64,000 bases of DNA. It comes from an uncultured Candidatus Binatia bacterium (GTDB taxonomy: Bacteria > Desulfobacterota > Binatia > UBA9968 > JAJDTQ01). Below are positions 1 through 35,400 of this stretch, piece after piece; positions within the stretch are counted from its first letter, which is position 1; each line of letters opens with the position of its first letter. A program made the translations under genes and the position numbers. The notes under the pieces are model-generated. The model did not search any database, was not told where the DNA came from, and was given only the letters and a program-made list of their open reading frames with translations. Where the stretch lies: the NCBI GenBank assembly GCA_965214905.1, contig OZ243984.1:3963802-4027801 (forward strand), in the 5' to 3' direction.

Positions 1-2162
1 AAGCGCGAGGTGTCGTGGCAGTCCAGGTACTTGACGATTTCGTTCCCCAACACCCTGGCGCTCTGGCTGCCCACCGTCGGCGCGGTGTCCGCCGCTTCGC
101 TTTCGCCAAGGGCGCGGGCCAGGATCGCCAGCGCCGCCTTCGGCTCCTTGTCCTTGTCGGGCACCATTCCCACTGCATGAAAGCCGAGGGTATCGGCGAA
201 GACGAACGCTCCGCCCTCCGGGTTCGGCAGGAAGGCGGGGAACAGGGCGCCGTCGAGGCCAGCGAACTCGTGACGGAGGTCCCGGGCCTTTTGCCCCTGC
301 TCGAAGGCGGTATGAAGAACGAGGTTGTCGTAGGCGGCCTGCCACGCCACCCGCAGGGGATGGGCGGGCAGGACGATGAGGCCGACGGTGCGCCCGGACA
401 GCGACTGCACTTCGACGGTATTCGCGAGGGCGAGTGCGGAGTTGCCCTTCTCCAACAGGGCGGCCCAGGCCCGCAGGTACTCCTGTACGACGCCGAAGGG
501 CGCAACCGTCTCGTCGTATACCTGGGCAACGCCGCCGCCGCCCGCGCAGAAGCCTTCGGCCATCCTGCGGCTGACCGCCGCCGCGCGCTTCCATGCGTCG
601 CCGTCACCGCGGTCGAACGGCTCGAACTCCGCGGCGCCGGCGCGCTCCCCCGAGCCCCGCACCTTGACCGTCCACCGCCCGATCTCGCCCTGTCTCTTGA
701 TCCATTGCTCTTCGACCTCGGCGATCAGCGCGGGCCGAAAGACCCGGAAGCTCTTGCGTCTTCCCTGTTCGAGCGGCGTTCGCAACAGGACGAAGCCCTT
801 GGAATCGACGGTGACCGAAGGGGCCGACGTCATCGTCGAGACGGCTTCACGGCTCCCCATCTCGGCGAGCCCCTCGCTGAACGTCCGAACCTTCGCGCCA
901 ACCCCGCTGATCTCCGGCTCCGGCGGCTCCCCGAAGCGGACGATGAACTCCTCGCTCTCCTGGGGTTCGATCGCGTCGTTGCCGACCACCTCGACCACCG
1001 CCTTGGCCGACAGCAGCGTGGTTTCGTCCAGCGACGAGAAGTCGTCGTTGCTGAATCGGCATTTCTCTCCGCCTTTCCGTGCGGAATGGGCAACCTCCCG
1101 AACCGCGAGTTCCTCCTCCATGTCGGTCCGGAGGGCGACGCGGTATTCGGCCGCATTCTTATCGAGGTCCACGGGGTCGGTCTTCCATCTGACCTCCAGG
1201 GTCGAAAAGCGGCCGCTCTGGTCCGCGTCCGGCCGCAGGACGAGAGCCGGCGGCTCTTCCGCATCCGCGCCTTCGATCAGCCCGGACCATCTGGCGATGG
1301 CGCCGTTCCGGTTTCGCCAGGAAATGAGCTCGATGTCCCGGATCGACTTCGCCGGGGGCTCGGTTCGAAGCGCGCCGATCCACAGGTCCTCGTGGCCCGC
1401 GAGATCCTCCAATGCGGCGCGTAGCGGCTTCGTATCCACGGAATGGAGGAAACGCTCCAGATCGCCGCTCTCCTGCCCCGAGTTCGGGTCCAGCCGTATG
1501 GACTCGATACGCGCGGCGGGCGCGAGACTGGCGCCGGCCGCGCCCAGCAACCGATCCGTGAACATCCGGGCAGTGTTCAAGCTGTCTGTGGGGTCCGAGT
1601 TCCCGGAATCGAGGACGGGCCAAAGGCCGAGCAGATGCAGATGTGCGCCCGGCGATCCGCCCCCTGATGCAGTCCGGCAAAGGAAGTCGAACTCCGCCCA
1701 TCGCGACACGGCGTAACCGCCGCTGTGTCCCCGCGCCTTCTTGACCGCCTGCTCCGCGTAGCGGCGAACGTCCGCGGAGTGCCGCCGGGTGATCTCGTGG
1801 CTCGTCAGACGTTGCGCTTCCCGGAACAAAGCGGCTTCAGCCACCTCGCGAACGGCGCTGTAGATGCCGTCCATGCCGGCGCCAGCGCGTTCGGTATCGA
1901 CCAGGAGCAGGACGGCATCGCGCTTGGCCTCGCGCATCTCCACGGCCCGGTCCGCGGTGACGGTCCGTAGCTCGTCGCGGTCCTCATCCGCAACCCGCAG
2001 AACCGTCCAGCCGGCGGGCGCAAAGGAGGCGTCGCTCGCAAGCGCTTTGACGACATCGGGGGTCAGGCAACGCGCGAAAGCCATTGCCCCGGTCCGGGGG
2101 TCGCCGAGCACGCGCTTGAACGCTGCCGCAAGCAACCGCCCGTGGAGATCGGTACACTTCAC
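1..2162 (-). CDS. Large hypothetical protein, N-terminal 720 aa only (3' end lies beyond the window); third gene of the NERD-kinase-ATPase operon; positional analogue of DptH
   Basis: Not in the supplied track because it has no stop inside the window. The minus-strand frame (coordinate = 2 mod 3) is open from GTG 2162..2160 down to position 3. That GTG lies 1 nt after the upstream TGA at 2166..2164; an alternative ATG is at 2084..2082. My hand translation reads VKCTDLHGRLLAAAFKRVLGDPRTGAMAFARCL...GLIVLPAHPLRVAWQAAYDNLVLHTAFEQG...ARVLGNEIVKYLDCHDTSR, with ordinary protein composition. The long + strand ORFs 15..1424 and 376..1716 over the same DNA are R/A/P/S-rich shadows. Confidence 0.7.
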   Translation of the reverse strand, partial: MKCTDLHGRLLAAAFKRVLGDPRTGAMAFARCLTPDVVKALASDASFAPAGWTVLRVADEDRDELRTVTADRAVEMREAKRDAVLLLVDTERAGAGMDGIYSAVREVAEAALFREAQRLTSHEITRRHSADVRRYAEQAVKKARGHSGGYAVSRWAEFDFLCRTASGGGSPGAHLHLLGLWPVLDSGNSDPTDSLNTARMFTDRLLGAAGASLAPAARIESIRLDPNSGQESGDLERFLHSVDTKPLRAALEDLAGHEDLWIGALRTEPPAKSIRDIELISWRNRNGAIARWSGLIEGADAEEPPALVLRPDADQSGRFSTLEVRWKTDPVDLDKNAAEYRVALRTDMEEELAVREVAHSARKGGEKCRFSNDDFSSLDETTLLSAKAVVEVVGNDAIEPQESEEFIVRFGEPPEPEISGVGAKVRTFSEGLAEMGSREAVSTMTSAPSVTVDSKGFVLLRTPLEQGRRKSFRVFRPALIAEVEEQWIKRQGEIGRWTVKVRGSGERAGAAEFEPFDRGDGDAWKRAAAVSRRMAEGFCAGGGGVAQVYDETVAPFGVVQEYLRAWAALLEKGNSALALANTVEVQSLSGRTVGLIVLPAHPLRVAWQAAYDNLVLHTAFEQGQKARDLRHEFAGLDGALFPAFLPNPEGGAFVFADTLGFHAVGMVPDKDKEPKAALAILARALGESEAADTAPTVGSQSARVLGNEIVKYLDCHDTSR

Positions 2163-2163
2163 G

Positions 2164-3969
2164 TCAGTGTTCCATCCGGGGCGAGAAGCGGGGCCGCAGC
2201 CGCTTCATCGCCTCGGCGTCGTTCACGCCGACGAGGAGCCCGAGATCCCGCAAGCGGCGTTCCAGAATCGCCCGATTCGATTGCAGAAGCTCGTTGGAGA
2301 TCGTCATGTGCGGGGGCGCCGCATCGATGTGAAATCCGTAGCGTTCCCGGATCGTGTCCAGGAACTCCCGCAAGGAAAGCCGTTTCACTCCCGGCTTGCT
2401 GGCGCGGCGAAGGAGGTGAAGGTGCACCAGGTAGTCCAAGACCGAGTCGGTGAGAACCAGTGACCGGACTTCCCGTTGCCTCCTTCCGCTCCCCGCCGTC
2501 TGCGTCCCTCGGGTGGTTCTTCGCTTGCGCGCCAGCCCGTTCGGGCGCCCGATATTCAGCGTCGAGTCGACCATGGGAATCGTATGGCCTCGTGCCTTTG
2601 TTCCCATCAGCAGCGTCAGGGCGGCTGCGAGACGCCGAATCGGATTGGGTTGACTCTGCTGGTTGCGCAACACGCTCGCCGCTTCCGGGAAGTCCTCGTC
2701 CAGAGCATTCGCGAGCTTTTCGCCGTGCTCATCCATCTGGCGGTGAATGTATGGCGCCTCGTCGTGGCGCTCATGAAGCAACTCGCCGAGCAGATTGATC
2801 CACTCCGTGGCGTACGGTCGGATGGAGTGTTTCTCTTTCTTGATCTTCCGATTGTCCCTCGCCGCATAGTCCAGCAGCCGCAGCATCATCAGGATCTCGG
2901 GGAGGCGCTCGATGCGGCGCATCAGGTCGCCCAGCGACTGCTCGGCCAGATCCCGTAGCTCGCGAACGACACCGTTGGAGCCATCCACGAAGATGCTCGC
3001 CGGCCGCTGGCGCTGTGGCTCGATGACGACCCCGGTCTCCGCCCATCCGAACAGGATCTCGACGACGCTGGTGAGAACCGCCGTCATGCCCGTCGCGACA
3101 CAGGATTCGAGCATGTCGACGAAGGCATGGCGCGGAACGCTCTCCCCATAGGACCGCACGAACCGGCGGATGTCCTCGGAGAACTCCCTTGCCGATTTCT
3201 CGGCAATCGGGCGCTGGTTCGAGATCTGCGCGCTTTCGTTACCCCGTATCTTGTCCGGCGCGGCACCCAGTTGTTGGCCCAGTCGGATCGTCAGGATCTG
3301 ATCGAGTCCGAGGCCTTTATTCTGTTCATCGAACTTGTCCGCCGCCAAGTCGGCGACGGGTCCCTTCCGTTCGACACCGTGGCTGAACGCGCGCAGCAAC
3401 AGGTTCTCTTCGTGGCCCTTGCCGATGGCGAACCAAGTGCGGTCCCCTTCGTTGTTCGGCTTCACGTGGTCGCCCTTCTGGCCCGCGAGCATCGCCACGA
3501 TCATCTCCGGCACGAAACGCAGATGTGTCGTACTCTCGGGAAGATCGATCCAGCTCGCCATGTAGTGGGCCGGCGCCACACGCTGGACCTGTCTATCCCG
3601 GCCGAGATCGTGCCTGGAGTTCTCAAGACAGAAGCAGAGCAGCAGGTCGCCGAGGATCGCTTGTTCCACAGCCTCATCGAAACCGTCGAGGTCGGGACGG
3701 GAAGCGAGTTTCTCCGCGATGCGTTCCACGGTTGCCGCCCGTCTTCGTTCCCGGAAGGTACCGCCGTTCGGAGCGAAGGTCTTGAGGAAATTGCCCCGGC
3801 CCCGGCGCTGTCCGAATCGAAACATGTAGAACACCGCGGGAAGGACCGCCGAAAGCTCGAACGTGTTGAACGAGACCGGCAAAACCTTGTCGTACTGCGC
3901 CGACCACAACTCGTTCGCCATGCGCCGCGACAGCACGTCCTGGACGATGGAACGGGCGCTACTTGCCAT
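2164..3969 (-). CDS. Hypothetical protein, 601 aa; middle gene of the operon (positional analogue of DptG; no motif recognised)
   Basis: Real part of ORF 2164..4248 starts at ATG 3969..3967 (MASSARSIVQDVLSRRMANELW...). This ATG overlaps the upstream stop by 11 nt (ATGGCAAGTAG), indicating translational coupling. Composition is protein-like throughout, and the 93 codons upstream of this ATG are S/R/T-rich junk. The C-terminus ...LSLREFLDTIRERYGFHIDAAPPHMTISNELLQSNRAILERRLRDLGLL looks like a helical/wHTH-type tail. Confidence 0.8.
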   Translation of the reverse strand: MASSARSIVQDVLSRRMANELWSAQYDKVLPVSFNTFELSAVLPAVFYMFRFGQRRGRGNFLKTFAPNGGTFRERRRAATVERIAEKLASRPDLDGFDEAVEQAILGDLLLCFCLENSRHDLGRDRQVQRVAPAHYMASWIDLPESTTHLRFVPEMIVAMLAGQKGDHVKPNNEGDRTWFAIGKGHEENLLLRAFSHGVERKGPVADLAADKFDEQNKGLGLDQILTIRLGQQLGAAPDKIRGNESAQISNQRPIAEKSAREFSEDIRRFVRSYGESVPRHAFVDMLESCVATGMTAVLTSVVEILFGWAETGVVIEPQRQRPASIFVDGSNGVVRELRDLAEQSLGDLMRRIERLPEILMMLRLLDYAARDNRKIKKEKHSIRPYATEWINLLGELLHERHDEAPYIHRQMDEHGEKLANALDEDFPEAASVLRNQQSQPNPIRRLAAALTLLMGTKARGHTIPMVDSTLNIGRPNGLARKRRTTRGTQTAGSGRRQREVRSLVLTDSVLDYLVHLHLLRRASKPGVKRLSLREFLDTIRERYGFHIDAAPPHMTISNELLQSNRAILERRLRDLGLLVGVNDAEAMKRLRPRFSPRMEH

Positions 3970-6900
3970 ACCGTTCCCCCGGCGGTTCGAGCGGAGCGAT
4001 GGACATGCGTTGCAGTGGGGCGGATCCCGAATCGTCGATTCCCACCGAGATCTCGAAGATCGCCTCCTCGCGTATGGGGTTCCAGGCGAACATCCGACGG
4101 TGGTCTTCCTGAACCAGTCTCTGCACGAAGATGGAGAGGTGCGCGAAGGTGTCGTCGGTCGCGATATCGCCCAACTGATAGCCGTCACTGAGGTCGAGGA
4201 GCAGGTGAAACAGCTCGGCGCCAAGACGCAGCCGCTCTTCGCGCCCATCGCGGTAGCGGTAGACCAGGAACGCTTGCCGATGGAGCCGGTCCAGCCCCTC
4301 CCCGCCGCACGTATCGACTTCGAGACGAAAATCGCAAACCGATTTCTCGACCCAGAACGCCGTCTCGGTCGGCGTTCGCGGGGTGATCTTCAGCGGCACG
4401 GCGCCGGGTCGATCCAGCGCCTTGGGCGGGAGGGTTTCGAGGCGGGAGATACCGGCGCAAAGGCGCTCGATCAGCTTGGCGCGTTTGTCAGGATCGTCGT
4501 CGATGGCAAGCGCGCGGAACTCGCGCAAGTGACGCCCTTGGGCCAGATCCAGCGCGAACGGGTCGCCGGTCCATCGTTCCATCTCGTCTTCCGGCCACTC
4601 GAACCAAGCCCGGCGGCGTGCTGCCTCAAGAGACAGCCCTTCATAGCGGGGAAGCCCGCCGTCGCCGTCGATGGACGGCGAGTACAGCAGACGCCGGTCG
4701 ATCTGCGGGTGCGCATCGAGAGCCGGGTCGAAATACACCATCTCCCGCAGCACTTCCCCTTGCCGTCCCGGCGACCGGGGCGCAAAGGCGCGCTCGGAGT
4801 AGGGCTGCGGCGCGCCGGAACCATCGTCGCTCCGGTGATAGTCGCGGCAGAAGTGCATACCGAACAGGATATAGACCAGTGCGCCGCGCAGTTCGCGGAT
4901 CGTGATGTGCGCTTCGCCTCGCAGGTGCACGGCCTGCAGTGCCTCGAACAGCCGCTGTCGGGCACGGCGGCGCACTGCCTCGTCCGCGAGTTCGCCGGGG
5001 CCGAACGTCCGCGCCGCTCGAACGACCTCGCAACGGTCTTGAGCCGAACACGTGCGACAGGGTGTCCATATGTTGGCGGCCCGCTCTCCGCCGTACAAGC
5101 TGTCGACCAGACGATCGAGAAAGCCGGTGTCGATGCGTCTCCTGTCCGCCGTGACGGCACCGACCAGCGAGCGCTGGTTCAGGTCGACGAACCGGATATG
5201 CGATCCGGTAGGCGGGGCTTGGCCCTCGAGAAAGTCGGAAAGGGCCCTCGTCAACGAGGTTTCGCCCCGGCGTTTCTCGATGTTTTCGATCCACTCCAAC
5301 AGACGGCCATCGTTGATCGCCAGCAGGTGGACGATATCCTCGCCCGGCCGGCCGCCCTGGAACGGGGCCAGGAATTCGTCCAGCAGATCGTCGGCGGAAC
5401 GGCCCTTCCAGGACGCGGAACCGTCGAGATTCATGCGTACGGTCAAGCCGTCGTCCAACCCTCCCTCAATGATGCGCGCCGCGGAAGTCCGGTCGCCCAA
5501 TCCCAGGCGTTTGGCAAGGTGTTGGAGGAGGGCGGTCTTGCCGTCGCCGGCATTGCCGCACAGGACCACGAGACGAACACGCCGTGCGACGATGTCGCGG
5601 TAGAGGGCTTGTTCCAGATCCGTTTCGACGTAGGTTCCGGCCGCGAACTCGCTGTCCAGCCCGCGCGTCTCGCGGTTGCCCCAGAGTGACCCGGGATAGG
5701 ATTGCAGCAGCGACTTCAGCCACTCCACTTCGTTCTCTTGCCGCTCGGCGCGTCCGTGCCCTGGAGGGGCCGATTCGGCATGTCCGACTTCAACGACTCC
5801 TTCCGCTTCGCTCGGTGCGATGTCTCCCGTCCGGCGTCCGGCGCGGTGAGCCGGACTCAAGACCGCCAGCGCGTCCGCCGCCGAGGCGATCCGCTTCTCC
5901 CGGACCGGGCTGGTGGCACGGTCCAGGAAAGCGGCCAGCACCGGATATTCCTCACGCTCCACCCCGTCCCAGTTCAACCCGCGCTCCTTGGCGTAGACGC
6001 CGTCGTCGTATCGAAACGGCTCCTTCTCGAACAGCGCATGGAAGAAGCTCGCGGCGAGCGCGTAGAAATCGTCGGACGGAGCGGCCTCCCGGCCTTCGAG
6101 ACAGGACGGCGAGCAGTAGGGAACCGTGCCCGGTGCAGCCATGGGTTCGCCGACCCTCCCCACGAAGTCGTAATCCGTCAGGACGAGGTCGTCTCCGGAA
6201 ACGATCAGGTTACGGGGGCTGACATCGCCATGCACCAAACCATTGCCGTGCAGGACGCCCATCGCGTTGCAGGCCGTGCGCAGCCATCGCACGGCCAACG
6301 CTTCGACCGATCCTTCCTGAAAGTCCTCGGCGAGGATCGGGAACACCCCCGAGTACTCGCTGAGCGGCTCGCCTTCGATCCACGTCATCAGAGCCAGGAA
6401 CTGGTTGTCGCGCCATTCCGGAGCCACTTCGAAGATCGTCGACAAGGCGGAGTGCCGGAGATGCGAATGCGCCAGCTCATAGGCGCGGAGGACCCGCCGG
6501 CCCGTCTCTTCATCGCGAGCGACCTTGGCGACGTAGGTGCCGAGGTCGCCCCCGGTCTCGCGATTGATTTTCACGACCTTGAAGGCGGTTCCCACCCCCC
6601 CCCCCCCCCCCCCCCCCCCGGAACCGAGGCGCGAGACGATGCGATAGTCCTGATCTCGGAAGCGCACAATCTGCTCTTCCGTCCAGAACCGCGCCGGCGG
6701 AGGCGGCGGTTCGGGCATCGGCTCGCCCAGCAGCTCGGACAGCGATGCCTCCATCTCCGCCAAGCTGCTCCGCGCTCCGGGCTGGTCCGCCATCCCCCGA
6801 TCCAGCTCCACCAGGACCTTGGCACTGTCCTCGTTCTGCCGATCCTTGAAGAGCACCGTCAGCGACGCGCAAAGCGAATAGACGTCGGACCGACGATCCG

Positions 6901-8032
6901 CGGCGGCTCGTCCCTGGACGCGAACCTCGGGAGAGACCGCAGCGTCCCGATCCCCTCCCGGTTCGGAGGAAGCCACGGAGACGTCCCCCGGAATCCGGGT
7001 GTAAGCGAAACCGGTCAGGATCGGCGAATTGTCATGTTTCACCAGGATCGTGTTCGGCGTCAGGTTTCGGTGAATCATGGGTTCGGTTTCCGTACTCGCC
7101 CCGTGGAGTTCGCGCAACGCTTGCACGGCGCCGCGGGCGAAACTCGAACGGGCTTTCGTATCCCACGATTCATCCGCGGCGCGCTCCGCGATGCTGGGCG
7201 CGGCGGGATCGGCCACGGTGAAGAACGCGATCTCGTTCGCATATCCCGGTGCTTCCTGGAACGAGTCCACGATGCGCGGCGCCCAACCGTGCCGTTGCAG
7301 CCGTTGCAAAGATTTCCACTCGCGTTCCGCCTTCTCACCGGCGTTCGGGCCATCGCTCGCCGACAGATCGTAAAGATGCAGGAGCACTCGATCCTGCCGG
7401 GAGGCGTGTTTCGCTTCGTAGATCCGATGGAATAGCTCCTCGGGCGGCGTGCGGAGCCGCAGATGCGAGTACCCGGCCAGTCGTTTCAACGCACCGTCCA
7501 GGGCAACGGCGCTCCTGGGTTCCAGGGAGCGTCTCGATGCCCTGATTTGCTGCAAGGACAGCACATTCGGTGAATCGAATCCCAACGCACCGCGCCAGGT
7601 GTTGAACGTATGGAACGAAACGCCGCGAACGGGCTCCCGTCGTTCGAGTCCCTTGACCTTGTCGGCCGTTTCGGTGACCAGAAACGCTCCGTCCACCCGC
7701 GGGAGATCGGGAATCTGCCGGCGCAGCGTCGTGCCGATCTTGCGCGCTTTGTTCGTCACGCGCTCGGCTTCCTGTTCTACGATGTCGGGATTTCGATTGA
7801 CCCATGCCGCGGTCCAGTGCTTGACCTCGATGACCCGAACCCCCGGCGGGCCGATGGCGACGATGTCGATCTCGTCGGATTGGAGACGATGCGTTGCGGA
7901 GAAAGTCAGATTCGTCAGCAGGTGCCACTCGTCATCGCCCGGAACGGAGATCAGGCGCGTCTTGAGCTGGGCGATGGCCTTGCGCTCGCTTTCGTTGACG
8001 GCTGGTCCACATGAAACAATACGTGCTTTCAC
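3959..8032 (-). CDS. 1357-aa multidomain protein: NERD nuclease-like domain + degenerate kinase-like domain + Ser/Thr-type kinase domain + P-loop NTPase (PglW-like N-terminal half, DptF-like C-terminal half)
   Basis: ORF 3959..8032 with a GTG start. N-terminus MKARIVSCGPAVNESERKAIAQLK...DEIDIVAIGPPGVRVIEVKHW matches the NERD pattern. The first kinase-like lobe has IHRNLTPNTILV and TGFAYT, so both the HRD Asp and the DFG Asp are replaced. The second lobe has G-loop LGSGGGGGGGGVGTAFKV, VAK lysine, VHGDVSPRNLIV and LTDYDF. After that come Walker A VVLCGNAGDGKTALL (nt 5538-5564) and HLLAINDGRLL. Cys cluster: CRTCSAQDRC. Confidence 0.9.
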   Translation of the reverse strand: MKARIVSCGPAVNESERKAIAQLKTRLISVPGDDEWHLLTNLTFSATHRLQSDEIDIVAIGPPGVRVIEVKHWTAAWVNRNPDIVEQEAERVTNKARKIGTTLRRQIPDLPRVDGAFLVTETADKVKGLERREPVRGVSFHTFNTWRGALGFDSPNVLSLQQIRASRRSLEPRSAVALDGALKRLAGYSHLRLRTPPEELFHRIYEAKHASRQDRVLLHLYDLSASDGPNAGEKAEREWKSLQRLQRHGWAPRIVDSFQEAPGYANEIAFFTVADPAAPSIAERAADESWDTKARSSFARGAVQALRELHGASTETEPMIHRNLTPNTILVKHDNSPILTGFAYTRIPGDVSVASSEPGGDRDAAVSPEVRVQGRAAADRRSDVYSLCASLTVLFKDRQNEDSAKVLVELDRGMADQPGARSSLAEMEASLSELLGEPMPEPPPPPARFWTEEQIVRFRDQDYRIVSRLGSGGGGGGGGVGTAFKVVKINRETGGDLGTYVAKVARDEETGRRVLRAYELAHSHLRHSALSTIFEVAPEWRDNQFLALMTWIEGEPLSEYSGVFPILAEDFQEGSVEALAVRWLRTACNAMGVLHGNGLVHGDVSPRNLIVSGDDLVLTDYDFVGRVGEPMAAPGTVPYCSPSCLEGREAAPSDDFYALAASFFHALFEKEPFRYDDGVYAKERGLNWDGVEREEYPVLAAFLDRATSPVREKRIASAADALAVLSPAHRAGRRTGDIAPSEAEGVVEVGHAESAPPGHGRAERQENEVEWLKSLLQSYPGSLWGNRETRGLDSEFAAGTYVETDLEQALYRDIVARRVRLVVLCGNAGDGKTALLQHLAKRLGLGDRTSAARIIEGGLDDGLTVRMNLDGSASWKGRSADDLLDEFLAPFQGGRPGEDIVHLLAINDGRLLEWIENIEKRRGETSLTRALSDFLEGQAPPTGSHIRFVDLNQRSLVGAVTADRRRIDTGFLDRLVDSLYGGERAANIWTPCRTCSAQDRCEVVRAARTFGPGELADEAVRRRARQRLFEALQAVHLRGEAHITIRELRGALVYILFGMHFCRDYHRSDDGSGAPQPYSERAFAPRSPGRQGEVLREMVYFDPALDAHPQIDRRLLYSPSIDGDGGLPRYEGLSLEAARRRAWFEWPEDEMERWTGDPFALDLAQGRHLREFRALAIDDDPDKRAKLIERLCAGISRLETLPPKALDRPGAVPLKITPRTPTETAFWVEKSVCDFRLEVDTCGGEGLDRLHRQAFLVYRYRDGREERLRLGAELFHLLLDLSDGYQLGDIATDDTFAHLSIFVQRLVQEDHRRMFAWNPIREEAIFEISVGIDDSGSAPLQRMSIAPLEPPGERYGK

Positions 8033-9409: not shown

Positions 9410-10992
<1,583 letters not shown>

Positions 10993-10996
<4 letters not shown>

Positions 10997-11412
10997 AGCT
11001 CGACTACTCGGCCTTGGAAGATGCGGTCGCTCAGTTGCAGAGGAGCTTCGACTATCTCCACGGCGACCTCGCCCGCACGGATTCCGGCCTGCGGGAGCAG
11101 TTCCGAGCCGCCACCATACAGGCGTTCGAGTTCACCTACGGGCTGGCGGTCAAGATGATCCAGAGGCAACTGGCCCAGGTTGCCGCCAATCCCGATGCCC
11201 TGCGCGAGATGGACTTCGCCGACCGGATGCGCGATGCGGCCGATGCCGGGATCGTTCGTGAGGCCCTGTCCTACATCCGTTACCGGGAGCTGCGGAACAA
11301 GACCTCCCACACCTACGACGCGGATAGGGCGGAGGAGACAGTCTCGGTGATTGACGAGTTCCTGCGCGACATGCGTCTCCTCCTGCAAGAGCTTCGGAGG
11401 CGCAACCCGTGA
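10993..11412 (+). CDS. HEPN-domain protein, HI0074-type nucleotidyltransferase substrate-binding family (toxin-like partner of MNT)
   Basis: Real part of ORF 10588..11412 begins at ATG 10993, giving an ATGA overlap with the hsdM stop. Sequence: [22 protein letters not shown]...[16 protein letters not shown]...[19 protein letters not shown] matches the HEPN Rx4H motif. 139 aa. Confidence 0.8.
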
Positions 11413-12863
11413 AACCGATTGACATCCGCCCAGCAGATCTGGATACGGTTCGGCGCATTCTGAGCGAGCACGTGCCTACCGTGGAGGTACGCGCCTTCGG
11501 ATCGCGGGTGGCCTGGAACGCGCGGGAAACCTCCGATCTCGACTTGGCGCTGATGACGGACGAGCCTTTGAGTGTCGACCGCACGGCAAGGCTGCGAGCT
11601 GCCTTCACGGACTCCGATCTGCCCTTTCGAGTGGACATCGTGGACTGGGCCAGCACGTCCGAGAGCTTCCGGCGGGTCGTCGAAGCGGAGTATGTCGTGT
11701 TACAACCGCCATTCCCCCGGAACCTGGATGCTGAGGGTGGCTGGACATCGATCAATCTCGGTCGGACGTGCATCAAGATCGACAGCGGGGCGACGCCGTG
11801 CGGCGGAAAAGACGTTTGCCAGCCGAGCGGACCGTACGCATTGATCCGAAGCCAGAACGTGCTCAAGGGCGGTTTCCGTCACGAAGATTTGGCGTACATC
11901 GGTGAGCATCACGCTTCCGAACTGTCGAGCAGGGATGTGCTGGACGGTGACGTTCTTCTCAACATCACTGGGGATTCCGTCGCACGAGCGTGTCAGGTCG
12001 ATCCGCATGTCCGTGAACAGCGGACCATCACGCACATCCTCGGCACGCTGGACGACAAGATCGAGATGAACCGGCGGATGAACGCGACGCTGGAGGCGAT
12101 GGCGCGGGCGTTGTTCAAGTCCTGGTTCGTCGATTTCGACCCCGTGCGGGCCAAGATGGAGGACCGCGACACCGGGCTGCCGAAAGAGATTGCCGACCTG
12201 TTCCCCGACCAGTTGGTGGAGACCGCGATCGGCCGGGTACCGGAGGGGTGGGCGGTAGTGTCGTTGACGGAGTTGATGAACGTCAACCCGAAACGCTCGC
12301 TATTGCGAGGGCAAGTCGCACCGTATCTCGACATGGCGAATATGCCGACGCGCGGGCACGTGCCGGATTCCATTGTTGATCGACCTGCCGGATCGGGAAT
12401 GCGATTCACGAATGGCGATACTCTCGTCGCTCGAATCACGCCGTGCCTTGAGAACGGCAAGACGGCCTATGTGGACTTCTTGCGTGCGTCTGAGGTCGGG
12501 TGGGGTTCAACAGAGTATATTGTCCTGAAGCCCAAACACCCTCTTCCCGACGAGTTCGCTTACTGCGTGGCTCGCAGCGCCGGATTCCGGGAATTCGCGA
12601 TCCGGAACATGAGCGGCACTCGCGGACGCCAGCGGGTACCGGCGGCAGCACTGGACGGCTTCGCGATGAGTGCACCCCCGGCGCCAGTAGCCGTGCGATT
12701 CGGGCACATCGCCCGTTCACTGTTCGGCCGCGCCAGATGGGCGGCGCTCGAATCCCGCGCGCTCGCCCACATTCGAGACGCGCTGCTGCCGAAGCTGGTG
12801 TCCGGCGAACTAAGGATAGGAAATGACACGCGAGCCATTGGGAGAACTGCTGGTGTCCGCTGA
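11409..12863 (+). CDS. hsdS: Fusion protein: minimal nucleotidyltransferase (MNT, HI0073-like) N-terminal domain + type I R-M specificity subunit HsdS with a shortened first target-recognition domain
   Basis: 484 aa, with a GTGA overlap with the HEPN stop. Residues 1 to about 98 carry the MNT motif FGSRVAWNARETSDLDLAL (GS-x10-DxD). From about residue 108 the sequence is HsdS-like. TRD1 reads GWTSINLG...DGDVLLNITGDSVARACQVDPHV and runs directly into the central conserved region REQRTITHILGTLDDKIEMNRRMNATLEAMARALFKSWFVDFDPV. A full-length TRD2 and the distal conserved region LPKLVSGELRI follow. Confidence 0.85.
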   Translation: MKPIDIRPADLDTVRRILSEHVPTVEVRAFGSRVAWNARETSDLDLALMTDEPLSVDRTARLRAAFTDSDLPFRVDIVDWASTSESFRRVVEAEYVVLQPPFPRNLDAEGGWTSINLGRTCIKIDSGATPCGGKDVCQPSGPYALIRSQNVLKGGFRHEDLAYIGEHHASELSSRDVLDGDVLLNITGDSVARACQVDPHVREQRTITHILGTLDDKIEMNRRMNATLEAMARALFKSWFVDFDPVRAKMEDRDTGLPKEIADLFPDQLVETAIGRVPEGWAVVSLTELMNVNPKRSLLRGQVAPYLDMANMPTRGHVPDSIVDRPAGSGMRFTNGDTLVARITPCLENGKTAYVDFLRASEVGWGSTEYIVLKPKHPLPDEFAYCVARSAGFREFAIRNMSGTRGRQRVPAAALDGFAMSAPPAPVAVRFGHIARSLFGRARWAALESRALAHIRDALLPKLVSGELRIGNDTRAIGRTAGVR

Positions 12864-25915: not shown

Positions 25916-25938
25916 CCCCCCCCCCCCCCCCCCCCCCC
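25916..25938. repeat. 23-nt poly-C (poly-G on minus strand) homopolymer in the lipA / giant-adhesin intergenic region
   Basis: Read directly: C run 25916-25938. About 450 nt of strongly C-rich, G-poor + strand sequence follows (to about 26390), up to the adhesin RBS. Confidence 0.95.
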
Positions 25939-26422
25939 ACGGCGGGGGCTCATCAGCCGCCCCATAACGCCCACCCCCCCTTCGCCCCTCCTTCACGCAC
26001 ACCCCACCATCAACGCCCCTCAACACATTCTCCCCCGACCCCTGCTCCACCATCACAGATCTATCCGACTGACCCGGCCCGCTTCCCACCGCTACCAGTG
26101 TTGCGGGTAACACGGCTCCCGCTCCTGTCGCTCCCGTCCCCGCTGTTGTTCCTACTGTCGGCGCAACACGCGCGGACGCCACACTTGTCCCTCTCGAACC
26201 GGAGCCTGCTTGACCGCCATCCCCGCACTACGACGCTGAAACTCACCCCATTCAATGGGACCCTGACCACGGCACCAGCAGCAACCTTCATGGACTGCAC
26301 GACGGCTGACGCCACCGCCTGTGCCAAAATCCTCTCGTTTTGCCGCCATCCGAAGGTCAACCCTTTCGGTTCCCTGTCCACCAGCGGGTAGCAGCACGAG
26401 AAGGGCGCGAAGGAGAGTCGTC

Positions 26423-29400
26423 ATGCGTGCATTGAATAAGTCCAACACCTTTTCCCCACGGTCGTGGAGCATCGCGATCCTACGTGCCTGCCTCGGTTTC
26501 CTGATGAAAAATATGGAAAATACGCAGAAAAGCGAGTTCCCCGGTTTCCTTCCAGATCGACCGTCTCCCTCTACCCATGAGCCACAGACCAAAACCCTAC
26601 ACGGCTCCCACCGGATGCACCCCACTACTTGGGTCCCGCCCACGTCCCGTGGACTCGTCAATCCGATTGGGACACGATTGCCGAATCTTCTCCTGCGGTT
26701 GCCCGTTCTCGTCACCCTCGCCCTGGCAATACTACTGACTACATGGCCGGGACCCGCCCACGCGCAGGAAGCAGCGAACACCAGCCCGAATAGTGGAACC
26801 GCCGCCACGGGCACCCTGGTCATTCAAGGTACAACAGAAACCGACGGTTCTTTGACTGCGAAGGTAGGGGATACCGTATGGGTGACCGACAACAGCATTG
26901 ATGATATCGAGGATGCCGACGGCATGACAGCCGCACGGTTTCGTTACCGGTGGATGCGAGCCCCATCTCCCTCCGGAACTTTCGTGGCCATCGGGGGAGC
27001 AAACTCATCCCTCTATACTCTGTCCTCCGCGGACGAGGAAAAGTGGCTACGGCTACAGGTAGACTTCTACGATGATGCCCGCAACCACGAGGAACTGCTC
27101 GGTCCGGTGATTGCAGTAGCAGGCAACTCCCCCGCCACCGGTGTGCCCACCATCGCCGGTACAACCAAGGTAGGCCAAACATTGGTCGCGTCGACGGACC
27201 GCATCGCCGACGCCGACGGCCTCAACTCGGCACGGTACCGCTATCAGTGGTTGAGAGAAGACTCGGAAAGCGGCATTCAGGCCGTTATCACCGGGGCTAC
27301 CCGGTCGTGGTACACGCTGTTGGATGCCGACTTGGGCAAAATGCTCAGGGTTCGTGTAAGTTTCATCGACGACGCAGGCAACAGCGAAAAAAGACTCAGT
27401 GAGGGCAAGGGTCCCGTGCTGCCCGACACCAGTTCCCCTCCGAGTTCCGAAAGCCAACAAGCCGCTACGGGCCAGCCGATTATTGAAGGTACACCAAGGG
27501 TAGGAGAGGTCCTGTCTGTACGTACTGACCAGATCGTGGACCCGAACGGAATATCTCAGGCGCAATTCACGTATAAATGGTATTATTGGAACGGAAGGGG
27601 TTGGTACGGTTTTTCCGGGGACAGTTCGAGTATATTAAGGGTTGGGAGTTTGTTTCAAGGAAAACACCTCAGAGTAAAGGTGAGCTTTGAGGATGATGCC
27701 GGCAATCGCGAAGAGGTGTACAGTCCTAACGTAAGAGTCGCGTACGAGTCAGACGGCGGGCGACCCGTGATTCTGGGGAGGTCAAGGATTCTGGGGACGC
27801 CAAGGCTAGGTCAGCTGCTTACGGTATCGACCGCGGACATCTCGGATCCAGATGGCCTGACTTCGCCCAATTTTCGGTATCAGTGGCAACAGAGTCTTAG
27901 TCCCCTCAGTAGCAGATACTACAGTCTCTCCGGTGCCACGGCGCCCTCCTTCAGGCCGAGCCGCTATCATGTAGGCTATAGTTTACGCGTGAAAGTAACG
28001 TTTACGGATGACTCGGGAAACACGCATGAGATAACTAGCTACTCGGTGAGGATCGTTACAAACAGCGGTCCTAGAGGAAGGCCGACCATTGAGGGCGCAA
28101 GCGGTCGAGTTGAAGGGAGAGTTGGCGACCTACTTACGGTATCGACCGCCGAGATTGAAGATGACGATGGCCTCACCTCGCCAAACTTCAAGTATCAGTG
28201 GCAGCAATGGCATCGTGGCCGTTGGTCCTATATTCCCGATGCCACGGGGGTATCGTTCAGACCAGGCTTCGAGCTTCAAGGCGGGCGAATACGCGTGGAA
28301 GCAACGTTTACGGATGATTTCGGAAACGTCGAAAATGCAGTTAGCAGCTACCTGACGATATCCTCGAACACTCCTCCTTACGGACGTCCCGTTATACAGG
28401 GCACGGAAAGAATTGGCGCGCGTGACGCAGCGAGAGTCGGTCAGCTGCTTACCGTCTCGACTACTGCAATTCAAGATCGCGATGGCCTCACCTCGCCAAA
28501 CTTCAAGTATCAGTGGCAACAGAGGCGTCGTAGTGATGGCCGTTGGTTCGATATTCGCGATGTCACAGGGGCGGCGTTCAGAGCAGGCCCCGGAAGTCAA
28601 GGAGAGCGTATACGCGTGAAAGTAACGTTTACGGATGATTTCGGAAACGTCGAAACGGTGTACAGTCACAGCAGTCTCTCCAGTGGAGTGGCAATCGTTG
28701 AGAACAGCCGTCCGTTAGGAAAGCCCGTCATACAGGGCACACCGGGACTTGGTCGCTTGCTTACGGTATCGACCGCAGGCATCACGGATGCGGATGGGCT
28801 GTCCTCGCCGATTTTTCGCTATGAGTGGCAATGTGAAAGTAGCTATAGACCGTGTTGGCGCCGCATTGGCTATCAAACAGTGCAGTGGGCCAACGGACCG
28901 ACGTGGTCTACAGCCCATGACTATCACCACTTCCGACTGCGCGTCAAGGTGACATTTACGGATGATTCGGGAAATACCGAAACCCTGTATAGTGAGGAGG
29001 TGTCAGTCCCGCCGTTTGATGAAGCTGAGGGGTATGTATACATAGCGGGCTCGCCGGTTGTAGGGTCGACCCTGACTGCGGCTACGGAGTTGATAAGACC
29101 GGAAGGACTGACCTTTTCGTACGAATGGTTCAGAGCAAACAGCGCGACCGATGATTCATCATCGGCGACACGAATAAGCTCCGATCAGAACTACCAGGTA
29201 GTGGGGGACGACGTTGGCAAGTATATCTTTGTTGTCGCCCGGGTCACCTCTGGCAATTCGGAGGTGGTTCGTACAAGCGCGCGGACACGTATAACTGGAC
29301 CGGCAAACCAGCAAGCTAGTGGAAGTCCTGACATCGGCGACACGGCAAAGGCGGGCGAGGAACTTATTGTGTCCATAGCGAACGTCAGCGACGGGAACGG

Positions 29401-32400
29401 CCTCACTTCGGTAACTTACGGGTATCTGTGGCAGCGGAGGGCTACAAGCGGGGGATTATGGAATGTGGTGCGGGGTGCGGATGCGGAGTCGTATACGCCA
29501 GTAACGGACGATCAAGGCAAATCACTTCGGGCGACAGTGGTTTTTGTCGACGACGCAGGATACACGGAAACGCTGACAAGCAATGAAGTGACAGTGCAGG
29601 ATAGTGTTGTAGCAAGTGGTGCGCCAGTGATTGAAGGGGCAAGAGAAGGGGTCACGAGGGTAGGCGAGATGTTGACGGCGAACCCGTCGGGGATCGACGA
29701 AGGCGCCCCGGAGTTGTCCATCGCCGACGCGAGCGTGGCTGAGGGTGCCGCGGGTGAGAGCGCGACGCTGACGTTCACGGTGACGCTGGACCCGGCGGCC
29801 ACGCAGCCGGTGACGGTGGAGTGGGCGACGGCCGACGGGACGGCGACCGCCGGGACGGACTACACGGCGGTGACGAACGGAACCCTGACCTTCGAGTCCG
29901 GCCAAGACAGCAAGACCGTCACGGTGACGGTGACGGGCGACGACGTGGACGAGCCGAACGAGACGTTCACGGTGACCCTGACGAACGCGCCGGGCGCGAC
30001 GCTCGTGAAGGCGGTGGGGACGGGGACGATCACGGACGACGACGACGCGCCGACGGTGACGTTGGTGCTGACCCCGGACTCGATCAGCGAGAACGGCGGC
30101 ACGAGCAGGGTGACGGCGACCCTAGACCACCCGTCGAGCGAGGAGACGACGGTGACGGTGGCGGTGACGCCGGAGTCGCCGGCGGTAGCGGACGACTACA
30201 GGCTGGTCGGGAACCAGTTGACGATCGCGGCCAACTCCCTGACGAGCACGGGCGAGGTGACGATCACGGCCGTGGACAACGAGGTGGACGCTCTGGACAA
30301 GGAAGTGACGGTGTCGGCCACGGCGGAGAACACGCAGGGGATCACAGCCCCGCCGAACGTGACGCTGACGATCACGGACGACGACGCGCCGGAGTTGGCG
30401 ATCGGCGACGCGAGCGTGACCGAGGGCGACTTGGGCGAGAGCGCGACGCTGGAGTTCACGGTGACGCTGGACCCGGCGGCGACGCTGCCGGTGACGGTGG
30501 AGTGGGCGACGTCCGACGGGACGGCGGAAGCCGGGACGGACTACACGGCGGTGACGAACGGAACCCTGACCTTCGAGCCCGGCCAAGACAGCAAGACCGT
30601 CACGGTGACGGTGACGGGCGACGACGCGGACGAGCCGAACGAGACGTTGACGGTGACGCTGACGAACGCACCGGGCGCAACGATCACGGACGCCACGGGG
30701 ACGGGGACGATCACGGACGACGACGGGCCGGCGGCGGTGACGCTGGTTCTGACGCCGGCCTCGATCGGCGAGAACGGCGGGAAGAGCACGGTGACGGCAA
30801 CCCTGGACCGTCCTTCGAGCGCGGCGACGACGGTGAGGGTATCGGCGGCGCCGGTATCACCGGCGGTGGCGAACGACTACAGGCTGGTCGGGAGCCAGTT
30901 GACGATCGCGGCCAACTCCCTGACGAGCACGGGCGAGGTGACGATCACGGCCGTGGACAACGAGGTGGACGCTCTGGACAAGGAAGTGACGGTGTCGGCC
31001 ACGGCGGAGAACACGCAGGGGATCACAGCCCCGCCGAACGTGACGCTGACGATCACGGACGACGACGCGCCGGAGTTGGCGATCGGCGACGCGAGCGTGA
31101 CCGAGGGCGACTTGGGCGAGAGCGTGACGCTGGAGTTCACGGTGACGCTGGACCCGGCGGCGACGCTGCCGGTGACGGTGGAGTGGGCGACGTCCGACGG
31201 GACGGCGGAAGCCGGGACGGACTACACGGCGGTGACGAACGAAACCCTGACCTTCGAGCCTGGCCAAGACAGCAAGACCGTCACGGTGACGGTGACGGGC
31301 GACGACGCGGACGAGCCGAACGAGACGTTGACGGTGACGGTGACGAACGAGTCGGGCGCAACGATCACGGACGCCACGGGGACGGGGACGATCACGGACG
31401 ACGACGGGCCGGCGGCGGTGACGCTGGTTCTGACGCCGGCCTCGATCGGCGAGAACGGCGGGAAGAGCACGGTGACGGCAACCCTGGACCGTCCTTCGAG
31501 CGCGGCGACGACGGTGAGGGTATCGGCGGCGCCGGTATCACCGGCGGTGGCGAACGACTACAGGCTGGTCGGGAGCCAGTTGACGATCGCGGCCAACTCC
31601 CTGACGAGCACGGGCGAGGTGACGATCACGGCCGTGGACAACGAGGTGGACGCTCTGGACAAGGAAGTGACGGTGTCGGCCACGGCGGAGAACACGCAGG
31701 GGATCACAGCCCCGCCGAACGTGACGCTGACGATCACGGACGACGACGCGCCGGAGTTGGCGATCGGCGACGCGAGCGTGACCGAGGGCGACTTGGGCGA
31801 GAGCGCGACGCTGGAGTTCACGGTGACGCTGGACCCGGCGGCGACGCTGCCGGTGACGGTGGAGTGGGCGACGTCCGACGGGACGGCGGAAGCCGGGACG
31901 GACTACACGGCGGTGACGAACGAAACCCTGACCTTCGAGCCCGGCCAAGACAGCAAGACCGTCACGGTGACGGTGACGGGCGACGACGCGGACGAGCCGA
32001 ACGAGACGTTGACGGTGACGCTGACGAACGAGTCGGGCGCAACGATCACGGACGCCACGGGGACGGGGACGATCACGGACGACGACGGGCCGGCGGCGGT
32101 GACGCTGGTTCTGACGCCGGCCTCGATCGGCGAGAACGGCGGGAAGAGCACGGTGACGGCAACCCTGGACCGTCCTTCGAGCGCGGCGACGACGGTGAGG
32201 GTATCGGCGGCGCCGGTATCACCGGCGGTGGCGAACGACTACAGGCTGGTCGGGAGCCAGTTGACGATCGCGGCCAACTCCCTGACGAGCACGGGCGAGG
32301 TGACGATCACGGCCGTGGACAACGAGGTGGACGCTCTGGACAAGGAAGTGACGGTGTCGGCCACGGCGGAGAACACGCAGGGGATCACAGCCCCGCCGAA

Positions 32401-35400
32401 CGTGACGCTGACGATCACGGACGACGACGCGCCGGAGTTGGCGATCGGCGACGCGAGCGTGACCGAGGGCGACTTGGGCGAGAGCGTGACGCTGGAGTTC
32501 ACGGTGACGCTGGACCCGGCGGCGACGCTGCCGGTGACGGTGGAGTGGGCGACGTCCGACGGGACGGCGGAAGCCGGGACGGACTACACGGCGGTGACGA
32601 ACGAAACCCTGACCTTCGAGCCTGGCCAAGACAGCAAGACCGTCACGGTGACGGTGACGGGCGACGACGCGGACGAGCCGAACGAGACGTTGACGGTGAC
32701 GGTGACGAACGAGTCGGGCGCAACGATCACGGACGCCACGGGGACGGGGACGATCACGGACGACGACGGGCCGGCGGCGGTGACGCTGGTTCTGACGCCG
32801 GCCTCGATCGGCGAGAACGGCGGGAAGAGCACGGTGACGGCAACCCTGGACCGTCCTTCGAGCGCGGCGACGACGGTGAGGGTATCGGCGGCGCCGGTAT
32901 CACCGGCGGTGGCGAACGACTACAGGCTGGTCGGGAGCCAGTTGACGATCGCGGCCAACTCCCTGACGAGCACGGGCGAGGTGACGATCACGGCCGTGGA
33001 CAACGAGGTGGACGCTCTGGACAAGGAAGTGACGGTGTCGGCCACGGCGGAGAACACGCAGGGGATCACAGCCCCGCCGAACGTGACGCTGACGATCACG
33101 GACGACGACGCGCCGGAGTTGGCGATCGGCGACGCGAGCGTGACCGAGGGCGACTTGGGCGAGAGCGTGACGCTGGAGTTCACGGTGACGCTGGACCCGG
33201 CGGCGACGCTGCCGGTGACGGTGGAGTGGGCGACGTCCGACGGGACGGCGGAAGCCGGGACGGACTACACGGCGGTGACGAACGAAACCCTGACCTTCGA
33301 GCCTGGCCAAGACAGCAAGACCGTCACGGTGACGGTGACGGGCGACGACGCGGACGAGCCGAACGAGACGTTGACGGTGACGGTGACGAACGAGTCGGGC
33401 GCAACGATCACGGACGCCACGGGGACGGGGACGATCACGGACGACGACGGGCCGGCGGCGGTGACGCTGGTTCTGACGCCGGCCTCGATCGGCGAGAACG
33501 GCGGGAAGAGCACGGTGACGGCAACCCTGGACCGTCCTTCGAGCGCGGCGACGACGGTGAGGGTATCGGCGGCGCCGGTATCACCGGCGGTGGCGAACGA
33601 CTACAGGCTGGTCGGGAGCCAGTTGACGATCGCGGCCAACTCCCTGACGAGCACGGGCGAGGTGACGATCACGGCCGTGGACAACGAGGTGGACGCTCTG
33701 GACAAGGAAGTGACGGTGTCGGCCACGGCGGAGAACACGCAGGGGATCACAGCCCCGCCGAACGTGACGCTGACGATCACGGACGACGACGCGCCGGAGT
33801 TGGCGATCGGCGACGCGAGCGTGACCGAGGGCGACTTGGGCGAGAGCGCGACGCTGGAGTTCACGGTGACGCTGGACCCGGCGGCGACGCTGCCGGTGAC
33901 GGTGGAGTGGGCGACGTCCGACGGGACGGCGGAAGCCGGGACGGACTACACGGCGGTGACGAACGAAACCCTGACCTTCGAGCCCGGCCAAGACAGCAAG
34001 ACCGTCACGGTGACGGTGACGGGCGACGACGCGGACGAGCCGAACGAGACGTTGACGGTGACGCTGACGAACGAGTCGGGCGCAACGATCACGGACGCCA
34101 CGGGGACGGGGACGATCACGGACGACGACGGGCCGGCGGCGGTGACGCTGGTTCTGACGCCGGCCTCGATCGGCGAGAACGGCGGGAAGAGCACGGTGAC
34201 GGCAACCCTGGACCGTCCTTCGAGCGCGGCGACGACGGTGAGGGTATCGGCGGCGCCGGTATCACCGGCGGTGGCGAACGACTACAGGCTGGTCGGGAGC
34301 CAGTTGACGATCGCGGCCAACTCCCTGACGAGCACGGGCGAGGTGACGATCACGGCCGTGGACAACGAGGTGGACGCTCTGGACAAGGAAGTGACGGTGT
34401 CGGCCACGGCGGAGAACACGCAGGGGATCACAGCCCCGCCGAACGTGACGCTGACGATCACGGACGACGACGCGCCGGAGTTGGCGATCGGCGACGCGAG
34501 CGTGACCGAGGGCGACTTGGGCGAGAGCGCGACGCTGGAGTTCACGGTGACGCTGGACCCGGCGGCGACGCTGCCGGTGACGGTGGAGTGGGCGACGTCC
34601 GACGGGACGGCGGAAGCCGGGACGGACTACACGGCGGTGACGAACGAAACCCTGACCTTCGAGCCCGGCCAAGACAGCAAGACCGTCACGGTGACGGTGA
34701 CGGGCGACGACGCGGACGAGCCGAACGAGACGTTGACGGTGACGCTGACGAACGTGTCGGGCGGGGGCGCGACCATCGAGGATGCCACCGGGACCGGGAC
34801 GATCACGGACGACGACCTTCCGGTGGTGACGGTGGCCGGCGGGGGGATGTGACGGAAGGTGCGGACGCGGAGTTCACGCTGACGCGGTCGAACACGTACA
34901 CGACGGGGACGCTAGCGGTCACGTTCACGGTGACGGACAGCGGCGAGGTAGTGAGGGGCGCGGCGCCGACGCGAGCGATCTTCCCGCCGAACGACTCCAA
35001 GGTGACGGTGGGGGTTGGGACGGATGACGACGAGGTGGATGAACGGGACGCCGTGCTGACGCTGGAATTGGATGACGGCGATGCCTACGACCTGGGTGCG
35101 GCGTCCACAGCCACGGTGACGGTGCGGGACAATGACGACGACAGGCCGATCGAGGGGCCGATATCGCTGACCCTGAACCCCTTGGCCAAGCTGGTTCGCT
35201 ACGGGGTGGGGGAGACGGTGGAGTTGGTTCTGTCGGCGGCCACAGGTGGCACCGGGCCTTATAGGTATAAACTGGAGCCGTTGCCGTCGGGGCTGTCGTT
35301 TGAGGCGGAGACGCGAGTTTTGTCGGGGACGCCGGACACCCCTGGGCTCACGGAGTCGACCTATGAGGTCAGAGACTCGGCGGGCTCGCCGGTCACGGGC

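Follow-up and report, generated by a model that had tools for sequence, protein, structure and literature searches.

A sequence-only reading of a 64,000-nucleotide stretch of contig OZ243984.1, from an uncultured Candidatus Binatia bacterium (the window, in which all positions below are counted), proposed that a long minus-strand gene, here called F*, encodes a defence protein in which a catalytically dead kinase-like lobe precedes a live one, the two being fused between a NERD nuclease fold and a restriction-type ATPase. The locus raises the question of what such a protein is: whether the first lobe is a kinase fold and is dead, whether the second is equipped for catalysis, to which system the protein belongs, and what a dead kinase could contribute to it. 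Our analysis suggests that F* probably supplies the F subunit of a DndFGH-like anti-invader system, a cassette of three genes that stands alone and is related to the MAD6-7-8 part of MADS. In it, a DndF/SspF core carries a portable NERD-pseudokinase-kinase head as in PglW, and the pseudokinase would regulate the kinase.

The span originally singled out, 5962-7462, corresponds to amino acids (aa) 191-690 of a single long minus-strand open reading frame (ORF, 8032..3959). It covers the kinase-like pair, although its end coordinate drops the last ~40 residues of the second domain. In Pfam, the F* protein is matched by NERD (aa 13-81, E 1.2e-8) and, once, by Pkinase (aa 476-677, E 3.5e-16), and the order of domains is NERD, dead kinase fold, Hanks-type kinase and DndF/SspF-like P-loop core. 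The features of the gene are as follows.

3959..8032, minus strand: F* gene, 1357 aa, GTG start at 8032; NERD, predicted pseudokinase, kinase and DndF/SspF-like core (ORF and translation)
7478..8032, minus strand: NERD (PD-(D/E)xK) nuclease domain, aa 1-185, with D56, E69 and K71 intact (Pfam NERD)
6698..7462, minus strand: predicted pseudokinase domain, aa 191-445, a full kinase fold without Gly loop (PDB profile, AlphaFold2 (AF2) and Foldseek, residue statistics)
5849..6667, minus strand: Hanks-type non-RD kinase, aa 456-728 (Pfam Pkinase, PDB kinases, conservation in 74 representatives)
6595..6619, minus strand: 25-nucleotide (nt) homopolymer, poly-G on the coding strand, encoding a 6-Gly insertion at aa 472-477 (sequence and relatives)
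5723..5848, minus strand: disordered, poorly conserved linker, aa 729-770 (identity 25%; predicted local distance difference test score, pLDDT, <50)
3962..5722, minus strand: DndF/SspF-like core, aa 771-1357, with P-loop, Cys cluster and C-terminal domain (PADLOC, motifs)

The two kinase folds

The Pfam Pkinase model matched the second lobe (domain 2) and not the first (domain 1), which leaves domain 1 invisible to Pfam. Searches with the single domain 1 sequence gave weak matches, all of them to protein kinases. A profile built from 28 domain 1 sequences matched 545 PDB sequences at E<=1, and the best 60, as listed, are all protein kinases or pseudokinases. The top match is CTR1 (E 6e-7), in whose alignment HRN falls on HRD, TGF on DFG, [SA]PE on APE, and SDVYS on the subdomain IX Asp. 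The AF2 model of aa 185-460 (pLDDT 76; predicted template modelling score, pTM, 0.73) contains the N-lobe strands, alpha-C, the hinge, alpha-E, the catalytic-loop strands, a disordered activation segment, and alpha-F to alpha-I. Foldseek found at least 1981 PDB matches to this model at E<=1e-3; all 50 listed are kinases or pseudokinases, with PknB first (8e-11), and PAK, B-Raf, RIPK2 and the MLKL pseudokinase among the others, in alignments of ~280 columns. The profile and fold matches listed are thus kinases or pseudokinases throughout, and domain 1 is a true kinase fold. Because the model and the Foldseek matches show the full kinase topology, what had been called two lobes are better described as two complete, two-lobed kinase domains (~aa 191-445 and ~456-728); the kinase-like pair itself is real. 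An APH/choline-kinase-type or non-kinase fold for domain 1 was considered and rejected, since Pfam APH reached only E 0.09 and the profile and fold matches listed were all Hanks-type kinases.

The catalytic residues of domain 1 are replaced in the way first described. There is no GxGxxG motif in the domain; the catalytic-loop motif reads H321-R322-N323 (HRN at 7064-7072, N323 being codon AAC at 7064-7066), and T340-G341-F342 (7007-7015) occupies the expected DFG site. In addition, H219 stands in place of the beta-3 Lys and T328 in place of the catalytic-loop Asn. These replacements extend to the family, as judged from 90 representatives clustered at 50% identity and covering the whole domain. 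The HRD-Asp position holds N (60), G, R, K or A and the DFG-Asp position T (68), A, S, I or V, Asp being absent from the five commonest residues listed at either site; the catalytic-loop Asn position is T/S, the beta-3 Lys position is H (75), and the Gly-rich loop is missing. A shifted Lys or Asp that might rescue catalysis was looked for, and none is apparent at the canonical positions in the same representatives. We therefore regard domain 1 as a predicted pseudokinase, in which a kinase fold is retained and every catalytic residue has been replaced, and the expectation that it should be catalytically dead is borne out as far as sequence can predict it. The family is also distinct and narrow, because an exhaustive search with domain 1 over 1.84 billion representative proteins returned just 647 relatives at E<=1e-3.

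Other residues of domain 1 are strikingly constant. R237/E238 of alpha-C, H321-R322, P368-E369, D383 and R421 are near-invariant in the 90 representatives, and D222 is invariant or nearly so. The near-invariance of D222, R237/E238 and H321/R322/N323 goes beyond the strict need of fold maintenance, and it could be taken to mean that domain 1 is not inert, but uses these residues to bind nucleotide or to carry out a non-canonical reaction (AMPylation-like, for example). We consider this improbable: the domain has neither Gly loop nor beta-3 Lys, both metal ligands are replaced (Asn by T/S and Asp by T), and several of the constant residues (HR, the APE Glu, the subdomain IX Asp, R421) belong to the classic structural framework of kinases.

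Domain 2 presents the opposite picture. K503 (6524-6526) lies inside YVAKV, H601-G602-D603 at 6224-6232 (D603 being codon GAT at 6224-6226) is followed by N608 at 6209-6211, and the metal-binding segment D620-Y621-D622-F623 is present, D620-Y-D622 occupying 6167-6175. In alignments to PknB and PknA from the PDB (~1e-8), HGD falls on HRD and D620 on the DFG Asp. Conservation was assessed in 75 sequences (74 representatives and the query), and the residues are retained as follows: K503 in 73, H601 in 75, G602 in 74, D603 in 71, N608 in 74, D620 in 72 and D622 in 73. The lysine, the HGD Asp and the D-Y-D-F segment attributed to the second lobe are therefore all in place. The statement that it keeps the glycine loop holds in part: a Gly loop is there, but it is interrupted by six additional glycines (GS-GGGGGG-GGVG), to which we return below. 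The HGD motif makes domain 2 a non-RD kinase, and with its Lys, Asp, Asn and metal-binding Asp kept it appears to be a catalytically equipped one.

The arrangement of a dead kinase-like domain before a live-looking kinase is thus upheld by residues, profiles, predicted fold and conservation. More than 1000 homologues of F* were found, of which the best 120 listed span nearly the whole protein (88-100% query coverage) at 62-90% identity. NERD, pseudokinase and kinase are kept together in nearly all long representatives, and the pseudokinase and kinase are always neighbours, in fixed order. Thirty full-length homologues were compared domain by domain: on average, pairs of them are 63% identical in the pseudokinase, 65% in NERD, 69% in the kinase, 71% in the DndF P-loop and lid, 63% in the DndF C-terminus and 25% in the linker. 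Since the value for the dead domain is close to those for the catalytic domains, it is evidently under selection and not decaying, and on these figures it does not appear to be unusually fast-evolving. Nothing suggests that the tandem arose by recent internal duplication: in hhalign, the domain 1 profile matched domain 2 at E 1.6e-4, no better than it matched unrelated kinases (6e-7).

The DndF-like core and the F-G-H cassette

The flanking parts of F* point to the type of system. At the N-terminus, the Pfam match bears out a NERD fold fused ahead of the kinase pair, and D56, E69 and K71 are invariant in alignments of 30 and of 67 sequences. The C-terminal part had been described as a restriction-type ATPase, and here the description has to be changed: PADLOC matches it to SspF (E 1.8e-17) and DndF (E 6e-6), and the P-loop core of DndF is described in the literature as nucleotide-kinase-like and not as a classical restriction ATPase (PMC10853773). 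The core contains the Walker A motif GNAGDGKT (5534-5557) and the further motifs LLAIND and MNLDG, all three invariant in the same two alignments, together with a Cys cluster (C992, C995, C1001). By analogy with the published description (PMC10853773), the further motifs would correspond to an Asn-type Walker B and an acidic strand-2 motif, and the features of the core fit that description of a P-loop kinase-like domain. A PDB search found no sequence-related solved structure for the core.

F* is followed by two further genes on the same strand.

2164..3969, minus strand: G gene, 601 aa, MAD7/SspG/DndG-like, with an 11-nt overlap with the end of F* (NCBIfam MAD7, PADLOC mad7 and SspG)
1..2162, minus strand: H gene, first 720 aa, cut by the window start (open frame; 91% DNA identity to the closest genome, L001, through window base 1)

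The G protein matches NCBIfam MAD7 (NF047733) with E 1.5e-44, and the G orthologue adjoining one F* homologue (P0002) carries PF26611 MAD7. The 720-aa N-terminal fragment of H has no Pfam, NCBIfam or PADLOC match. In a full-length H orthologue of 1658 aa, a nuclease-like PD..EVK motif is joined by a HerA/FtsK-type ATPase at the C-terminus (HerA/CedB matches), and the ATPase alone is recognisable to these models. The operon partners of F* are predicted to be DNA-binding and translocase-nuclease proteins, and within F* a dead but selected kinase fold is permanently coupled to a catalytically equipped non-RD kinase, a NERD domain with its D56-E69-K71 triad, and a nucleotide-binding DndF core.

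The three genes travel together. By tblastn, the great majority of 80 related genome loci contain the complete F-G-H cassette; these loci belong to Gamma- and Alphaproteobacteria, Acidobacteriota, Latescibacterota, Planctomycetota, Chloroflexota, Spirochaetia, Binatia and others. A plasmid of Rhizobium phaseoli also carries the cassette, within a defence island. The F-G-H operon is conserved across phyla without a cognate modification gene. DNA similarity of 91% to the closest genome, a gammaproteobacterial metagenome-assembled genome (MAG; L001), runs from window base 1 to 8018, 15 nt inside the F start; beyond 8018 the flanks differ, with lolA in L001, and ORFs of no known kind and an hsdM-like gene here. 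The end of similarity just inside the F start would fit a mobile three-gene cassette. In R. phaseoli, the NCBI Prokaryotic Genome Annotation Pipeline names the three genes "NERD domain-containing protein kinase family protein", "hypothetical protein" and "ATP-binding protein"; genes now carrying these names can be recognised as a DndFGH/MADS-related defence cassette.

The closest published counterparts are the DndF proteins of stand-alone DndFGH systems, some of which carry N-terminal fusions of NERD with an inactive and an active S/T/Y-kinase (PMC10853773). F* shares their domain order of NERD, dead kinase, live kinase and P-loop core, as well as a canonical Walker A, an Asn-type Walker B, an ND-like strand motif, a Cys (Zn-like) insert and a C-terminal domain (PMC10853773). 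The cassettes share a G gene followed by an H of ~1650 aa with a nuclease-like motif and a HerA/FtsK ATPase, and the absence of attached modification genes. They differ in that F* matches the DptF/DndF/SspF models weakly, that the best-scoring model for G is MAD7, and that the Gly loop of the kinase has a poly-Gly insertion.

The N-terminal half of F* is also that of PglW from BREX type 2 / Pgl of Streptomyces coelicolor, which consists of NERD, pseudokinase and active Hanks kinase; the identical tripartite arrangement has been noted in a subset of DndF proteins (PMC12839542). PglW autophosphorylates in vitro, and its K677A allele loses phage resistance (PMC4365076). The C-terminal halves differ, with winged helix-turn-helix domains and an inactive STAND domain in PglW as against the DndF core in F*. 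No PglX, PglZ or BrxC was found among the neighbouring ORFs scanned; as a side observation, these ORFs include a type I methyltransferase, HepT/MntA, adenine deaminase and TonB genes.

A third relative is MADS (mad1-8) of Pseudomonas aeruginosa, in which mad6, mad7 and mad8 are each required for defence (bioRxiv 10.1101/2023.03.30.534895). The top NCBIfam families of the present cassette are MAD6 (NERD and a kinase-like region) and MAD7. In F*, however, the DndF core is fused to the kinase protein, and no MADS model matched the H orthologue (NCBIfam) or the window H fragment (NCBIfam, Pfam, PADLOC). As in MADS, a type I-like methyltransferase gene adjoins the cassette in the window, but it is divergent. 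This hsdM-like gene (9410-10996, on the other strand) scores 45 bits against 720 for MAD2, and an hsdM-type gene adjoins the cassette in just 4 of the 80 related loci. We therefore do not treat it as part of the system, and a type I methyltransferase as obligatory partner, which would make the system MADS-like, is rejected.

The cassette is accordingly best filed under DndFGH-like systems with a kinase-fused F, and F* is an ordinary member of an architecture already described, that of a dead and a live kinase in an anti-phage protein. The novelty implied by the sequence-only reading does not hold, since the same NERD, inactive and active kinase module has been published (PMC10853773, PMC12839542, PMC4365076).

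The module is not confined to DndF and PglW. Four further proteins (P0145, P0155, P0163 and P0122) show this head joined to other partners, namely the DISARM helicase DrmA and a DprA-like domain; the DrmA fusions score 780-825 bits, just below the cut-off of 950. The module can therefore be seen as a portable head of several large defence systems, among them DndFGH-like systems, BREX type 2, MADS-like systems and DISARM DrmA fusions.

We note separately that some NERD-pseudokinase-kinase genes have no detectable DndF core, G or H downstream (L054 and L055, which are two copies in one Vicinamibacterales genome, and L026, L036 and L068). On the other side of the cassette, the plus-strand group at 9410-12863 consists of the type I hsdM-like gene followed by a HepT-like (nucleotidyltransferase substrate-binding) and MntA-like nucleotidyltransferase toxin-antitoxin pair. 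The last ORF of the group gives a weak HsdS-like signal, and no hsdR was found among the ORFs scanned up to ~19 kb.

Possible roles of the pseudokinase

Biochemical knowledge of the role of the module is confined to PglW, for which autophosphorylation and a requirement for the kinase Lys have been established. We propose that the pseudokinase is a built-in regulatory or scaffolding partner of the adjoining kinase. It may restrain or position the kinase for as long as no invader has been registered by the DndF core or the G-H partners; once one has, the kinase would autophosphorylate, as PglW does, or phosphorylate the complex or host proteins, and so license the NERD and H nucleases. Alternatively the kinase could serve as a back-up suicidal effector, as the literature proposes. 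Non-RD kinases are in general independent of activation-loop phosphorylation, and for this reason the non-RD character of domain 2 would fit control by a partner domain.

The same order of domains is known from eukaryotes. In the JH2-JH1 pair of JAK kinases and in plant tandem-kinase immune proteins, a pseudokinase likewise lies directly N-terminal to an active kinase in one polypeptide, and this likeness had been put forward as the logic of F*. The AF2 model of aa 1-775 (pLDDT 82, pTM 0.76) has the TYK2 pseudokinase-kinase pair 4OLI as its top Foldseek PDB match (E 8.8e-16 over 595 columns), and in this the dead-before-live order is borne out. The comparison does not extend to the interface or the geometry: superposition on 4OLI gives a root-mean-square deviation of 18.8 A and template modelling scores of 0.29/0.40. 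F* is moreover prokaryotic, has nuclease and P-loop fusions, and lacks the partner domains of the plant proteins as well as FERM and SH2, neither of which is among its Pfam matches. The likeness is most likely convergent; nothing indicates common descent.

Plant tandem kinases also suggest a different role, that of an integrated decoy or sensor. Phage kinase inhibitors or effectors, directed at host Hanks kinases or at the system's own kinase, would bind or modify the dead domain as bait, and this would release the non-RD kinase to license the NERD and H nucleases. The order of the two kinase domains and the resemblance of the model to TYK2 JH2-JH1 speak for this proposal. So does the activation-loop segment: nowhere else is the pseudokinase as variable (47% identity) or as disordered (pLDDT <50), as would be expected of an exposed interaction site. 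The rates of evolution speak otherwise. Overall, the pseudokinase does not outpace the catalytic domains in sequence change (63% identity against 65-71%) and is no more variable than the DndF C-terminus, and it is 51-85% identical to the query in the 80 loci from many phyla, unlike an arms-race bait. The literature assigns a fast-evolving sensor role to the DndF C-terminal domain instead (PMC10853773), and no phage partner for the pseudokinase is known. We consequently do not favour the decoy proposed by the sequence-only reading, and consider it unlikely. Were it true, F* would be a bacterial counterpart of the plant tandem-kinase immune receptors, recurring on DndF, PglW, DrmA (DISARM) and DprA-like scaffolds.

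Regulation of the kinase by its neighbour, within a DndFGH-like cassette, remains the reading we consider probable, and several observations weigh against it. All the curated cut-offs were missed: MAD6 scores 153 bits against 460, MAD7 153 against 410, the DptF model TIGR03238 15 against 50, and the PglW equivalog NF033442 33 against 990. For this reason the cassette should be called a relative of the named systems and not a member of any of them. Domain 2 has no clearly conserved alpha-C Glu among the 75 sequences, and its activity in this genome is uncertain because of the abnormal 6-Gly insertion in its Gly loop. The regulatory role itself would be carried over to the F* family by analogy, and the deviation and scores of the 4OLI superposition mean that the domain order of JAK kinases is shared but their geometry is not, although the inter-domain geometry predicted by AF2 is itself uncertain. 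With at least 62% identity across phyla and a compact three-gene cassette, the F* family offers a good experimental handle on the control of a kinase by a pseudokinase in immunity.

The poly-G tract in the Gly-loop codons

The sole unexpected item of the locus is the long poly-G run at 6595..6619. The Gly loop reads GS-GGGGGG-GGVG here and LGSGG[VI]G in the 144 other retrieved members having that loop, which makes the 6-Gly insertion unique among 145; the 92%-identical gene of the closest relative reads GGCGGGGTGGG at this site. In the AF2 model the insertion forms a disordered loop tip (pLDDT <50). A change of one or two bases in tract length would truncate the protein at 486-507 aa, leaving NERD and pseudokinase only.

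The run may be a candidate phase-variation tract or an artefact of long-read assembly, and in either case the live kinase, and with it the system, could be switched, impaired or mis-assembled in this particular genome. We regard this as possible but doubtful. Such a run is expected by chance only ~2e-8 times, and frameshifts within it would toggle between full-length protein and a NERD-pseudokinase stub. There is also a precedent, in that Pgl is phase-variable via a G tract (PMC4365076), although that tract sits in pglX and the tract of F* in the kinase gene. On the other side, the poly-G tract is known from a single assembly and homopolymer lengths are unreliable in MAG assemblies; no expanded G tract was seen at the Gly-loop site in the Joint Genome Institute (JGI) metagenome contigs scanned. 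There are just two homopolymers of at least 10 bases in 1.4 Mb of related loci, and long G/C runs therefore look specific to this genome. If real, the tract would add a second example of phase variation in defence systems that contain a kinase, the first being pglX.

The window contains a second homopolymer, which counts in favour of a switched, impaired or mis-assembled system. It is a run of 23 C at 25916-25938, which is non-coding and lies ~380 nt upstream of a giant adhesin-like ORF with Calx-beta/He_PIG repeats. In this region (26321-39420, plus strand), giant ORFs of 2843 and 3199 aa have ~5 kb in common, read in different frames, and encode Calx-beta and He_PIG Ig-like repeats, with strong GC and AT skew. 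They are probably one ~13-kb surface protein gene, with a frameshift or an open alternative frame.

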